Origin: Escherichia phage vB_EcoS_swan01
Sequence record: NC_048202.1
Strand: one strand, 5' to 3'
DNA: 50,865 bases
Part shown: in pieces, positions 6,867-47,595 of the stretch
Position numbering within the stretch: the first letter of the stretch is position 1
Layout: every line of letters starts with the position of its first letter
Translations under genes and position numbers: made by a program
Notes under the pieces: generated by a model
Told to the model about the DNA's origin: nothing
Seen by the model: the letters and a program-made list of their open reading frames with translations, nothing else
Databases searched by the model: none

Positions 6867-6911
6867 AAATAGCACTTTTTGCTAAACGCGATGCCCAAGA
6901 TCGTGTATAGT
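6867..6911 (+). promoter_or_regulatory. motif promoter-like element (AAATAGCACTTTTTGCTAAA, ~21 nt spacer, TATAGT)
   Basis: conserved motif plus -10-like hexamer about 30 nt upstream of the lipoprotein gene ATG. Confidence 0.55.
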
Positions 6912-17646: not shown

Positions 17647-17692
17647 TTATAGCACTTTTTGTTAAAAGTGGAATTAATTTATTTGATAGATT
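17647..17692 (+). promoter_or_regulatory. motif copy inverted relative to the late genes (TATAGCACTTTTTGTTAAAA, 22 nt, TAGATT)
   Basis: conserved motif with a -10-like hexamer at canonical spacing, but pointing antisense to the tail genes; in gene sense the motif directly abuts the AAGGAG RBS of the G gene. Confidence 0.45.
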
Positions 17693-30392: not shown

Positions 30393-30438
30393 ACTTTACC
30401 AAATGCCCTTGCGGAAGTTTTAACAAAAAGTGCTATTA
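30393..30438 (-). promoter_or_regulatory. motif promoter-like element (AATAGCACTTTTTGTTAAAA, 22 nt, TAAAGT)
   Basis: conserved motif immediately after the stop of 30436..30726, with -10-like hexamer at canonical spacing inside an inverted repeat. Confidence 0.55.
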
Positions 30439-34477: not shown

Positions 34478-34524
34478 CATTATACCTGGCCCCACATTTG
34501 AGTTTTAACAATTCGTGCTATTTA
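34478..34524 (-). promoter_or_regulatory. motif promoter-like element (AAATAGCACGAATTGTTAAAA, ~21 nt, TATAAT)
   Basis: motif directly follows the TAA stop of 34522..35415; perfect TATAAT within an inverted repeat; about 30-nt leader to the next ATG. Confidence 0.6.
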
Positions 34525-35415
34525 CACTTTGACCTTCCACTTAACCATCGTTCCGCGCTTAATGCTGATCTCACCTGCAATCGTCCGGTTTTTATAGCCG
34601 CCGTAGTGAAGCAGAAGGATAACAACGTCATCATGAATCTCGATCGTCTTTGGCGTAGCCGTTACTTCATACCAGGTGCCGTCATCAAGCCGGACTCCTT
34701 TTAGAGTGGCTGCAACTGGCATATCTTCAATTGCGCCCTGCGTTACGATTTCTTGATTTGCAAATGCGCTCTTGTCAATGCGCCAGCCTCCAGGCGCTTT
34801 CATTTCGGCAGCCGCTTTGTGGATCTCATCGCCAATGATTTTTTGAATTGACGTCTTACCGCCGCCGAATGGAGTTTCTCCAAACAAGTGTTTTGTAATG
34901 TCTTCCACGTAGTACACTTTATCCTCTTCGTTGTGCGGATTGTATCTATTGTGACCGTTGACAAAGAAATCAACTTTCAACCCTGATTTCGTACCATCGC
35001 TATAAACGCCATTTTCGCGCGATGTGTAGCGAATCGTTGACTTACCAGTCGTGCGGAACGTGATCGGATACTTGATATTGTCCAGACTTAAGCACCACAG
35101 CTTTTTATAGTCGCATGTTTTCATCTCGACCATCGGAATCTCTGCGCGTTCCGGTGAGCGCACTGGCAACACCTGGCCTTTATATGGCTTGTAGTGGAAG
35201 CTGGTATATCCTGGCATTGCATAGCCATAGTCTTTAAGTGCGTTGTACTGCGTATTGTGCGCATCAATAAAGTGTTCAATCTCCATTGTTGATGGGCTTA
35301 GTTTGTCGCTATTCATATCAACCTTATGGCATGTTTTTTCATCGGTAAAAATGTAATGACCAATGCCGCGAGATTCGAAGGTGATCGGGAATTTAATGTC
35401 AGCAAGTTTTAACAT
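34522..35415 (-). CDS. hypothetical protein with internal repeat
   Basis: 297 aa; two similar segments (IKFPITFESRG... and IKYPITFRTTG...). Confidence 0.5.
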   Translation of the reverse strand: MLKLADIKFPITFESRGIGHYIFTDEKTCHKVDMNSDKLSPSTMEIEHFIDAHNTQYNALKDYGYAMPGYTSFHYKPYKGQVLPVRSPERAEIPMVEMKTCDYKKLWCLSLDNIKYPITFRTTGKSTIRYTSRENGVYSDGTKSGLKVDFFVNGHNRYNPHNEEDKVYYVEDITKHLFGETPFGGGKTSIQKIIGDEIHKAAAEMKAPGGWRIDKSAFANQEIVTQGAIEDMPVAATLKGVRLDDGTWYEVTATPKTIEIHDDVVILLLHYGGYKNRTIAGEISIKRGTMVKWKVKV

Positions 35416-35430
35416 GGTGATTTCTCCTAA

Positions 35431-35613
35431 TTACTTAATTCTAACTTCAACGTCAATATCTGCGTTAGGGGCGAATAGCTGCGCCTTGCCATTTACACGA
35501 ATTGTAAGAATGTTCTCTTTGCGGCAGTTATCCAGCACTAGGCGATATTTGCCAGCAAACTTAACCATCATTCCCGGCTTGACTTCTCTCATTTTGATGA
35601 TCTTATCCATCAT
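35431..35613 (-). CDS. hypothetical protein
   Basis: 60 aa, AAAGGGG RBS; preceded by a ~200-nt untranslated GC-rich leader. Confidence 0.45.
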   Translation of the reverse strand: MMDKIIKMREVKPGMMVKFAGKYRLVLDNCRKENILTIRVNGKAQLFAPNADIDVEVRIK

Positions 35614-35815
35614 TAACCCCTTTCACATAAATAACCGTTTAATCTTTGGTGACGGGCTTCACTTCGTCGGTAGCCTCAGTTCAGTGACCTATCTAGCGTT
35701 CTGCCTGGTGGCGAGTGTGATAGTTCTGGCCTCACGGTTGGGAATCCTGACACTTCGATCAAGCCCCTGCGTCGCTCCTCTCCCGCAGCAATCCTTGCCG
35801 CCCGTCTATGTGTGT
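35614..35815 (-). ncRNA. candidate structured 5' leader / noncoding RNA
   Basis: about 200 nt between a motif promoter and the next RBS with no credible ORF; GC-rich with long-range complementarity (GACGGGC...GCCCGUC). Confidence 0.3.
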
Positions 35816-35861
35816 ATTATGCCTGGTTATCGTTTTTGAGTTTTAACAAAAAGTGCTATTT
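35816..35861 (-). promoter_or_regulatory. motif promoter-like element (AAAATAGCACTTTTTGTTAAAA, 22 nt, CATAAT)
   Basis: motif overlaps the TAG stop of the lipoprotein gene; -10-like hexamer at canonical spacing. Confidence 0.6.
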
Positions 35862-37201: not shown

Positions 37202-37247
37202 AAATAGCACTTTTTGTTAAAAATCAGGCCGCCTGATCGGGTACATT
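37202..37247 (+). promoter_or_regulatory. motif promoter-like element (AAATAGCACTTTTTGTTAAAA, 22 nt, TACATT)
   Basis: first promoter of the rightward small-gene block; leader CATCGAAACGAACC precedes the RBS. Confidence 0.6.
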
Positions 37248-43144: not shown

Positions 43145-43265
43145 TGATTTTATTCATGCTTTACTTACGCTACTTTATTCAGATATGCGAGCTTTTAGCA
43201 CCACTGAACATGTTTTATGCAATGATGATGGTGTGTTATTGGTTACAGTAAAGCGTATGGAATAG
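43071..43265 (+). CDS. hypothetical protein (uncertain start, overlaps upstream gene)
   Basis: its TAG stop is embedded in the conserved motif as for other genes, but the ORF overlaps 42749..43144 by 74 nt. Confidence 0.3.
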   Translation: MMNCSRQKLIDKILKHCAVNSISHDDFIHALLTLLYSDMRAFSTTEHVLCNDDGVLLVTVKRME

Positions 43266-43305
43266 CATTTTTTGTTAAAACTCCCGACCTTGTGTCGGGT
43301 ATATT
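43260..43305 (+). promoter_or_regulatory. motif promoter-like element (GAATAGCATTTTTTGTTAAAA, 22 nt, TATATT)
   Basis: hairpin cccgac-cttgtg-tcggg in the spacer; leader CATCGAAACGAACC. Confidence 0.55.
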
Positions 43306-47549: not shown

Positions 47550-47595
47550 ATTATGGCGCAATCCATCGCGCCAGTTTTAACAAAAAGTGCTATTT
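47550..47595 (-). promoter_or_regulatory. motif promoter-like element (AAATAGCACTTTTTGTTAAAA, 22 nt, CATAAT)
   Basis: TAG stop of the VRR-NUC gene embedded in the motif; drives the Dam gene. Confidence 0.6.

Follow-up and report, generated by a model that had tools for sequence, protein, structure and literature searches.

A covariation-supported leader RNA family shared by several unrelated groups of enterobacterial phages

Locus and promoter context

In the genome of Escherichia phage vB_EcoS_swan01 (NC_048202.1), a minus-strand segment of about 200 nucleotides (nt) at positions 35,614 to 35,815 separates a promoter from the first gene of its transcription unit, which encodes a protein of 60 amino acids (aa). 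The whole record of 50,865 nt was analyzed and is referred to below as the window, and the conserved part of the segment is called the element; coordinates are collected in Table 1. We are confident that this segment represents a new family of structured RNA, consisting of a domain of ∼165 nt with which a phage transcript, synthesized by the host RNA polymerase, apparently begins. The RNA family appears new in that it belongs to none of the families of Rfam 15, while structured phage leader RNAs as such are a known type. The window is the genome of a T1-like siphophage, and the 601 base pairs (bp) around the segment are 99% identical to those of Escherichia phage ityhuna and Shigella phage JK16, both members of the Drexlerviridae (Tempevirinae), with ityhuna being classed in Warwickvirus.

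A previous inspection of the DNA letters (the sequence-only reading) had proposed that about 200 nt of GC-rich sequence follow this promoter, compared with leaders of about 30 nt at the other promoters bearing the same motif, and these proposals agreed with what was measured. The distance from the -10-like hexamer to the ATG of the 60-aa gene was 202 nt, in contrast to 30 to 37 nt at five other promoters with the same upstream box (near 34479, 30394, 37246, 43304, and 6911), so the leader is a genuine length outlier, and the GC content was 0.57 in the element compared with ∼0.45 in the window. The repeated box, TAGCAC-TTTTTGTTAAAA(C), was found not only ahead of the element but also at 34497-34520(-), 30412-30435(-), 37205-37225(+), 43263-43283(+), 6870-6890(+), 17650-17670(+), and 47574-47592(-), and Klebsiella phage KMI8 has the same promoter box ahead of its own copy of the element. 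The end of the box lies 21 to 22 nt upstream of the -10-like hexamer, compared with the canonical 16 to 18 nt for a sigma70 -35 element, and it could function as an activator or UP-type site instead.

The helix that closes the RNA domain, P1, starts 7 to 10 nt past the -10 hexamer in six lineages with different promoters, and the sigma70-type promoter annotated in the record of phage HK578 itself stops 7 nt ahead of P1. Because of this spacing, the RNA domain appears to begin at about +1 to +4 of the transcript, as judged from the -10 positions.

Conserved fold and covariation

Automatic alignment with MAFFT misplaced the variable helices, and a block-anchored alignment with N as gap filler was built, which MAFFT returned unchanged. 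Two alignments were used, A4 with 30 distinct sequences and the curated A5 with 32 distinct sequences, and a covariance model (R1) was built from A4. When both strands of the window were searched with R1, there was one match in 50,865 nt, with a score of 150.7 bits and an expect value (E) of 2.8e-36. On A5, the 50-pair model had 92.5% of its cells paired, compared with 33 to 41% in controls in which the 3' partners were slid by 1 to 3 columns; pairs with changes on both sides numbered 27 in the model versus 6 to 10 in the controls, and the covariation score was 0.411 versus at most 0.079. None of 500 shuffles reached the observed value on four of the five summary measures, while the fifth, the count of further pair types, was not separable from the shuffles (318 of 500). 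With 27 of the 50 pairs changing on both sides, and with P4 and P5 almost free of mismatches, the pairing is conserved in related phages; the structured leader, riboregulator, or small RNA that the sequence-only reading had suggested is supported by covariation across lineages, and the domain may act as a leader in cis or as a released small RNA. As to the limits of these statistics, P1 and the P3b/P3c region were aligned so as to suit the pairing, and zero variation is seen in P3.1, at the base of P5, and in the greater part of P3.2.

The minimum free energy (MFE) of the 202 nt was -51.7 kcal/mol, corresponding to a z-score of +0.65 relative to dinucleotide shuffles (antisense strand, z = -0.09), meaning that the segment folds no better than shuffled sequences on either strand. 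Given this z-score, the case for more-than-chance structure is built on conservation and covariation and not on thermodynamics. By nearest-neighbour rules, the energy of the covariation model lies 7.5 to 26 kcal/mol above the MFE of each sequence, suggesting either that the junctions and short helices need tertiary contacts or that the model does not yet describe them fully. G.U pairs that are retained in the family would be A.C on the other strand, which identifies the sense strand as the one forming the structure.

The domain contains nine helices, two three-way junctions, and a nearly invariant core of ∼70 nt (Table 1). The long-range complementarity between GACGGGC and GCCCGUC that had been noticed from the letters corresponds to P1, and this complementarity is kept across lineages while the sequence is wholly replaced: the window has GACGGGC/GCCCGUC, PT1 has GGGCGGCG/CGCCGCCC, the Dhillonvirus type has GUCGACAG/CUGcCGAC, and Motto has GACGGGUG/CACCUGUC. 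Two-sided changes were observed in 9 of the 10 P1 columns, and the length of P1 ranges from 5 to 8 bp among lineages, with 7 bp in the window. The several internal GC stems that had also been described were not recovered as such, and what was found instead was the near-invariant core. Its blocks are GGAGAGGRGCAACGCAGGGGCYNGAUCGWAGUGUCAGGAUUCCCAACCGUGA, CACU, AGAACGC, and AGGCYAYCGACGAAG, between and around which the sequence is rewritten among lineages.

Hairpin P2 has three pairs with two pair types each and zero mismatches. Its stem can be extended to 35785-35801 at the cost of the inner end of P1, so that the innermost four nt of the P1 5' strand have the tail of P2 as an alternative partner, and both pairings are complementary across lineages. 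This alternative, which is drawn from few independent events, could be a switch or a folding intermediate. Helix P3 is formed by GGRGC with GCY-a-CC, and all 32 sequences pair at alignment columns 37-146, 19 of them with A-U and 13 with G-C. Beside P3, GA (35779-35780) lies opposite GA (35667-35668), a possible tandem G.A accompanied by a 2-nt bulge and flanked by a helix of only 2 bp, while a kink-turn consists of a three-nt bulge plus tandem sheared G.A pairs; all candidate positions are invariant, and hence there is no covariation.

P3.1 is a predicted pairing without covariation, as both of its strands are invariant. The P3.2 hairpin, with the consensus GGGGCYNGAU / GUCAGG-AU-UCCC and the loop CGWAGU, accommodates all of its variants, namely a change from G-C to A-U in KMI8, from G-C to G.U in PHB17, from G.A to G.U in locus L169, and from A-U to U-A together with U.G to U-A in KA2-1. 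The loop of P3.2 may also make a contact, through AGU(G), with CACU. In the distal arm, P4 pairs CUAUC (35719-35723) with GAUAG (35689-35693) and has six pairs, 2 to 5 pair types at each, and 98.9% of cells paired. The P5 hairpin (35701-35715) has three covarying pairs and 100% of cells paired above a base that never varies, and its tetraloop is ACCA in the window and GAAA or GCAA in most other lineages. AGAACGC (35696-35702) is an invariant junction of the same arm. Helices P1, P4, and P5 have been rewritten while the ∼70 core nt are invariant, indicating that unconstrained positions are saturated and that the core is under strong sequence-specific selection.

Two earlier assignments within the core were abandoned. 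A first core model paired GGGGCY with GGCYaCC and contained a hairpin UCAGG..CCgUGA; it scored well overall and was broken by the variants KA2-1 and L169. The hairpin was dropped because the rare core variants contradict its pairing, and the replacement core, obtained with RNAalifold on the curated alignment, fits every rare variant, including three double changes. Likewise, GGAGAGGAG was considered as a free standby site resembling a Shine-Dalgarno (SD) sequence and was rejected, its 3' half being paired in P3, where A/G covaries with U/C in the 3' core.

TABLE 1 Features of the leader and its flanks in the window
Feature	Position	Strand	Remark
Upstream promoter box, TAGCAC-TTTTTGTTAAAAC	35840..35858	-	Common to at least seven promoters of the window
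-10-like hexamer, CATAAT	35816..35821	-	Putative transcription start near A35809-35811, from spacing only
Whole structured RNA domain with short flanks	35641..35812	-	Match of covariance model R1; sole copy in the window
P1, 5' strand, GACGGGC	35800..35806	-	Pairs with 35651-35657
P2 hairpin, GCA-AGGAU-UGC	35788..35798	-	Loop GGA invariant
GGAGAGGAGC	35774..35783	-	First five nt in junction; GGAGC (35778-35774) is the P3 5' strand
P3.1, 5' strand, ACG	35770..35772	-	Invariant; predicted by RNAalifold on the curated alignment; partner CGU 35734-35736
P3.2 hairpin, GGGGCUUGAU-CGAAGU-GUCAGG(AU)UCCC	35740..35767	-	Most conserved part of the family
P3.1, 3' strand, CGU	35734..35736	-	Predicted by RNAalifold
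Distal arm	35677..35731	-	P3c/P3b (GG..CAG / CUG..CU), P4, P5 hairpin, and junction
Invariant 3' core, AGGCUACCGACGAAG	35662..35676	-	GCUaCC (35669-35674) is the P3 3' strand
P1, 3' strand, GCCCGUC	35651..35657	-	Followed by ACC (35648-35650)
Spacer and ribosome-binding site (AAAGGGG) of the 60-aa gene	35614..35650	-	Unstructured, A/C/U-rich; no terminator
First gene of the unit, 60 aa	35431..35613	-	PHROG 8121, function unknown; start codon at 35613

Coding potential and known RNA families

The sequence-only reading had seen no credible open reading frame (ORF) in the segment, and comparison among phages agreed with this. No conserved small ORF was detected when eight lineages were translated, all six frames being closed in at least one of them. 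On the sense strand, a single ORF possesses a start codon; it has 28 aa and begins with TTG, and this start is gone in the Dhillonvirus type; moreover, indels of 1 to 2 nt separate the lineages, and the invariant positions show no third-position pattern. A 158-aa ORF at 35363-35839 (+), antisense to both the element and the 60-aa gene, is spurious and open through the local G+C content, and several GenBank records likewise overlay a hypothetical protein on the element.

Owing to the high GC content, certain lineages have frames that run open through the element, and primase or helicase genes adjoin the element in Jilinvirus, KA2-1, and HK578, which might suggest that the segment is not an RNA at all but a small protein-coding gene or a site acting at the DNA level (e.g., an origin or a site of packaging or protein binding). 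This is highly improbable, considering that each frame on both strands is closed somewhere in the family, that the indels and the missing third-position pattern do not fit a coding sequence, and that the kept G.U pairs would become A.C on the opposite strand. In addition, the GATC within the core is lost in KA2-1 and KMI8, and the neighboring genes differ by lineage.

The search of Rfam 15 that had been proposed for the segment matched no family, either at the gathering score, where no match was obtained in the whole window, or at E ≤ 10, where no match was obtained over the element or over the homologous segment of six other lineages. Weak matches to rsmX at E ≤ 10 sit upstream of the element, and none lies over it. 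ARAGORN predicted no gene for tRNA or transfer-messenger RNA (tmRNA) in the window. In most lineages, the P1 3' strand is followed by ACC(A/U), with ACCA in the window, PT1, KA2-1, and PHB17 and ACCU in the Dhillonvirus type and sortkaff, which recalls a discriminator-CCA end. A tRNA- or tmRNA-like element was considered on account of this ACCA, which in the window follows a P1 of the 7 bp typical of an acceptor helix, and of a vague resemblance to the 5' end of tmRNA, yet it found little support given the negative ARAGORN result and the varying length of P1.

Several small self-cleaving ribozyme classes resemble the element in combining an invariant core with variable helices, in lacking a consistent gene association, and in occurring in phages, and a ribozyme in the 5' untranslated region (UTR) would, by trimming the leader, give the downstream mRNA a 5'-OH or an otherwise insulated end. 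However, hammerhead, twister, twister-sister, pistol, hatchet, HDV-like, and glmS models of Rfam gave no match at E ≤ 10, the element is larger than the known small self-cleavers, and its strict promoter-proximal placement is atypical for them. Self-cleavage is therefore regarded as improbable.

Distribution among phages

The distribution of the element was described by sensitive blastn with a 217-nt query against 50,697 phage records. Results revealed 178 matching records, part of which match the promoter end only, while queries derived from Arya and from HK578 matched 170 records each. The element is a tight family present in ∼170 phage records from several unrelated phage groups, and its occurrence thus extends well outside the related phages that the sequence-only reading had in view. 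Carriers among the T1-like Drexlerviridae are close relatives of the window in Warwickvirus and Hanrivervirus (about 19 records of about 50 to 52 kb), as well as Motto, PHB17, and Klebsiella phage KMI8 (49 to 53 kb). The Dhillonvirus type accounts for more than 130 records of 42 to 46 kb, including HK578, several isolates grown on K-12, and Sodalis phage SO-1; Jilinvirus and relatives include PT1, Arya, Alux-21, HeidiAbel, KA2-1, and Serratia phage MQ-4 (40.6 to 43.7 kb), and Sortsnevirus includes sortkaff and IME279 (about 42.5 kb). The host genera of the carriers are Escherichia, Salmonella, Klebsiella, Enterobacter, Serratia, and Sodalis, all belonging to the Enterobacterales. In about a dozen records whose annotation was inspected, the match is intergenic, lies on the same strand as the downstream genes, and occupies the gap between a promoter and the next ORF, the exception being occasional hypothetical-protein calls over the element.

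Outside phages, blastn gave no match to the element in 5,426 complete Escherichia coli genomes or in 72,556 plasmids. The exact core 19-mer was also scanned in species genomes, viral contigs, and metagenome contigs. Among 185,579 species genomes, it occurred four times, with three of these matches being due to chance in high-GC bacteria, near the chance expectation. The fourth (L030) is a copy of the sortkaff type on QFQS01000013.1, a 42.8-kb contig filed under a Cereibacter sphaeroides metagenome-assembled genome (MAG), and this contig is probably that of a coliphage mis-binned into an alphaproteobacterial MAG. The viral contigs contained 18 loci and the metagenome contigs 15, one of the latter (L044) being a chance match, and all genuine matches in both sets fall in known carrier lineages. 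Three looser patterns searched for distant relatives yielded one new variant (L169), the rest being noise. Besides, PQ843332.1 (Escherichia phage P-GXEC-L2P5, L050), a record of 88.6 kb labeled Dhillonvirus, is twice the usual length and has three element matches, and it is likely a concatemer or a mis-assembly.

Within Warwickvirus, the element is accessory, as ∼19 records carry it and many close relatives are without it. In tonn, tinuso, tonnikala, SECphi27, and others, the promoter is present and both the segment and the 60-aa gene are missing. In tonn (L004, about 2105-2200, homologous to 35614-35860 of the window), the same promoter is followed by a leader of only 40 nt, CACAUAGGGCGGCACGGCGUCGCCCACAAAACCAAUCAGGAG, which resembles both P1 strands of a PT1/Arya-type element linked by a short loop. 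The sequence of this leader suggests either an internally deleted element or an ancestral hairpin at which the element was inserted. In Salmonella phage slyngel (L003, about 1935-1995), a GGCCGG-AAAAU-CCGGCC hairpin lies between the 60-aa gene and a 297-aa gene, together with a truncated copy of the promoter box (TTTTGTTAAAC). To judge from these letters, the slyngel remnant can be read as a recombination scar, with promoter-gene cassettes apparently being shuffled at this spot.

The plain hairpin found in relatives at the same place, the narrow phylogenetic range of the family, and a P1 that appears to bury the 5' end at most 1 to 4 nt from the putative start would be consistent with a passive 5' stabilizer or translation enhancer, for which any stable 5' structure suffices, with conservation reflecting recent horizontal spread. 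Such a role is comparable to that of 5' stabilizer hairpins such as the ompA leader, in which the 5' end is likewise base-paired within a few nt of the start; unlike the element, however, these hairpins are simple and have no sequence-specific conservation. The ∼70 invariant nt, in which rare changes are compensated while P1, P4, and P5 are fully rewritten, argue against a passive stabilizer, and a fold of 165 nt with two junctions far exceeds what end protection needs, so we give this explanation little credence.

The sporadic occurrence in Warwickvirus and the location among small accessory early genes of unknown function would suit a trans-acting RNA, in which the domain is cut from the leader (e.g., by RNase E in the A/U-rich spacer) and persists as a stable decoy or anti-defense RNA of ∼170 nt. 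The domain is compact and closed by P1, with both ends protected, and neither the GGA of the P2 loop nor certain single-stranded stretches vary. Leader-derived processed RNAs do exist in phages, for example, the C4 RNA of phages P1 and P7, which, like the CI RNA of phage P4, is a structured RNA in a phage operon leader upstream of cotranscribed genes, as is the element. C4 and CI RNAs are ∼77 nt long, are matured by RNase P, and work as antisense RNAs against sites within their own transcript. In contrast, neither the C4 model nor other small RNA models of Rfam match the element, and no repeated complementary target sites were seen downstream. Moreover, blastn revealed no complementarity or similarity to E. 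coli sequence in the 5,426 genomes. A ribosome-binding site (RBS) always follows on the same strand within ∼15 to 60 nt, and the element lacks its own terminator; both features argue against a stand-alone small RNA gene, and the trans-acting RNA is accordingly considered quite unlikely. A CsrA sponge of the CsrB or RsmZ type was also considered and rejected: GGA is presented in the P2 loop only, other GGA or GGAG runs being paired in P3 and P3.2, and with a single GGA hairpin loop the element is not a CsrB-like sponge.

Spacer, downstream genes, and terminators

No terminator or SD-sequestering helix was found between the element and the RBS, and the spacers neither form structure nor show complementarity to the core. 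A boxA-like UUAAC is present in the spacer of several lineages and missing from L016, L024, and L046; it was rejected as a signal and is read as ordinary A/U- and C/A-rich spacer. A minimal AUG UGA at 35623-35628 (-), 10 nt upstream of the true start, overlaps the RBS region and is confined to Warwickvirus and Hanrivervirus. The 60-aa gene also accompanies the element in the Warwickvirus/Hanrivervirus lineage only. Among 10 first downstream genes tested, 9 fell in nine different PHROGs, all of unknown function, and 1 was without a family; no conserved downstream partner gene was found among the lineages tested. This diversity speaks against a riboswitch linked to particular genes and for a generic module.

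The same results bear on a riboswitch-type sensor, in which the core junctions would pocket a small molecule or ion reporting the state of the host, and a shift between P1 and extended P2 would alter access of Rho, RNase E, or the ribosome to the spacer. Similar to riboswitch aptamers, the element has a multi-junction fold, invariant junction nucleotides, covarying peripheral helices, an arm (P5) capped in most lineages by a GNRA-type tetraloop, a P1 that joins the 5' and 3' ends, and a place in the 5' UTR; in addition, the inner nucleotides of the P1 5' strand can pair with either the P1 3' strand or the 3' tail of P2, and a C/A-rich unstructured spacer adjoins the domain. Unlike such aptamers, however, the element has no recognizable expression platform, whether a terminator/antiterminator or an SD-sequestering one, and its downstream genes have no common function, two features that together argue against a conventional riboswitch. 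There was also no match to an Rfam riboswitch even at E ≤ 10, and the family is limited to phages of one bacterial order and is absent from bacteria, which would be unusual for a sensor of a universal metabolite, while the alternative P1/P2 pairing is supported by few independent changes. Taken together, a riboswitch-type sensor appears unlikely.

In all Dhillonvirus sequences examined, the first gene is followed by a strong terminator, GGCCCGC-N6-GCGGGCC-UCUUUUU, with seven G-C pairs, located in HK578 (L010) at about 2100-2145 and in L012, L014, L020, and others at +480 to +790 nt past the element. The U-tract of this terminator runs into the SD sequence of the next gene and leaves no space for a promoter; hence, the downstream recombination genes of Dhillonvirus depend on read-through. 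Terminator-like hairpins also occur 0.5 to 1.4 kb downstream in Motto, PT1, L024, L028, L019, L034, and L040, and no terminator was found in the sequence covered downstream of the element in sortkaff and Arya.

A gene-independent leader as the favored reading

The counterpoints to a riboswitch, to a small RNA gene, and to a passive stabilizer all favor a leader that acts in cis irrespective of the gene that follows. Building on the observed fold, family, leader position, and unrelated downstream genes, we propose, with low confidence (a probability of roughly 0.35), that the element is a cis-acting, gene-independent leader that engages conserved host expression machinery in a manner analogous to the put RNA of phage HK022. 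The RNA domain would act as an expression module for whatever genes follow, and the module would engage the host machinery rather than sense a metabolite tied to these genes. By analogy with HK022 putL, the nascent domain, apparently placed at the very 5' end of the transcript, would fold on leaving RNA polymerase, contact the enzyme, and stay on the elongation complex, which would thereby become resistant to pausing and termination. A second benefit may be that the 5' end, buried in P1, is shielded from 5'-end-dependent decay, and the module may affect termination, transcript stability, or translation. The invariance of the core across phages of enterobacteria, together with its absence from bacteria and plasmids, fits a conserved enterobacterial machine as the partner, and the tonn-type relatives, which have only a P1-like hairpin, imply that the function of the 5' helix is separable from the contribution of the core.

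The published properties of put invite a direct comparison (PMC9378689). In its transcript, the putL RNA of HK022 starts at +2/+3; it works without any phage protein and occurs in enteric phages only, and put RNA is about 70 nt long and forms two stem-loops in a V shape, with a triplex in stem I (PMC9378689). The element resembles put in being phage-encoded and part of an early-promoter transcript made by the host RNA polymerase, in its start at the 5' terminus (probably at about +1 to +4), in its independence of the identity of the downstream gene, in its limitation to phages of enteric bacteria, and in the presence of terminators inside the downstream operon, here in the largest lineage, the Dhillonvirus type. 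On the other hand, its carriers are virulent siphophages whereas HK022 is lambdoid and temperate, and the function of put is established whereas that of the element is predicted by analogy. The element is not a homologue of put, since size and architecture differ and R1 gave no match at E ≤ 10 in the complete HK022 genome.

Several results weigh against a put-like leader. No pause signal of the putL kind, resembling a -10 element, is evident in the first 30 nt, and an architecture of ∼165 nt with two three-way junctions is unlike that of put. This complexity and the invariant junctions would suit riboswitch aptamers or ribozymes equally well. The terminator is followed by a new TGnTATAAT promoter in L019 and L040, so read-through is not needed there, and in the window no intrinsic terminator is predicted within 3 kb downstream, with the next motif promoter coming after 1.3 kb.

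A broader possibility is that the element represents a new functional-RNA class of virulent coliphages, whether as an antiterminator that consists of RNA only and is unrelated to put, as a ribozyme, or as a sensor of host state or immunity resembling a riboswitch, and this we put forward as tentative. Among the papers searched, none gives the core sequence or connects these phage genera with a structured RNA; the catalogue of Fremin et al. (2023; PMC10690425), with more than 10,000 candidates, consists of phage RNA motifs supported by covariation, as is the element, and its unnamed candidates were not compared with it.

Implications for phage biology

RNAs of this complexity have often proved to be riboswitches, ribozymes, or regulators that bind a cellular machine, each with its own biochemistry. 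The element heads early or accessory operons of phages that grow on E. coli K-12, including Dhillonvirus isolates, ityhuna, and tunus, which makes its function open to direct genetic and biochemical testing. For annotation, the segment is at present unannotated or labeled as a hypothetical protein in ∼170 deposited genomes. If the element modified the host RNA polymerase as an RNA alone, it would join put as just the second phage class of this kind, and it would explain how the early operons of Dhillonvirus pass their internal terminator. As a sensor or decoy, it would mean that the conflict between phage and host also has a layer made of RNA. And if it were a new functional-RNA class, its invariant core would mark a new interface between an RNA and a machine or between an RNA and a ligand, which, in the sensor version, would tune the accessory early genes of these phages.

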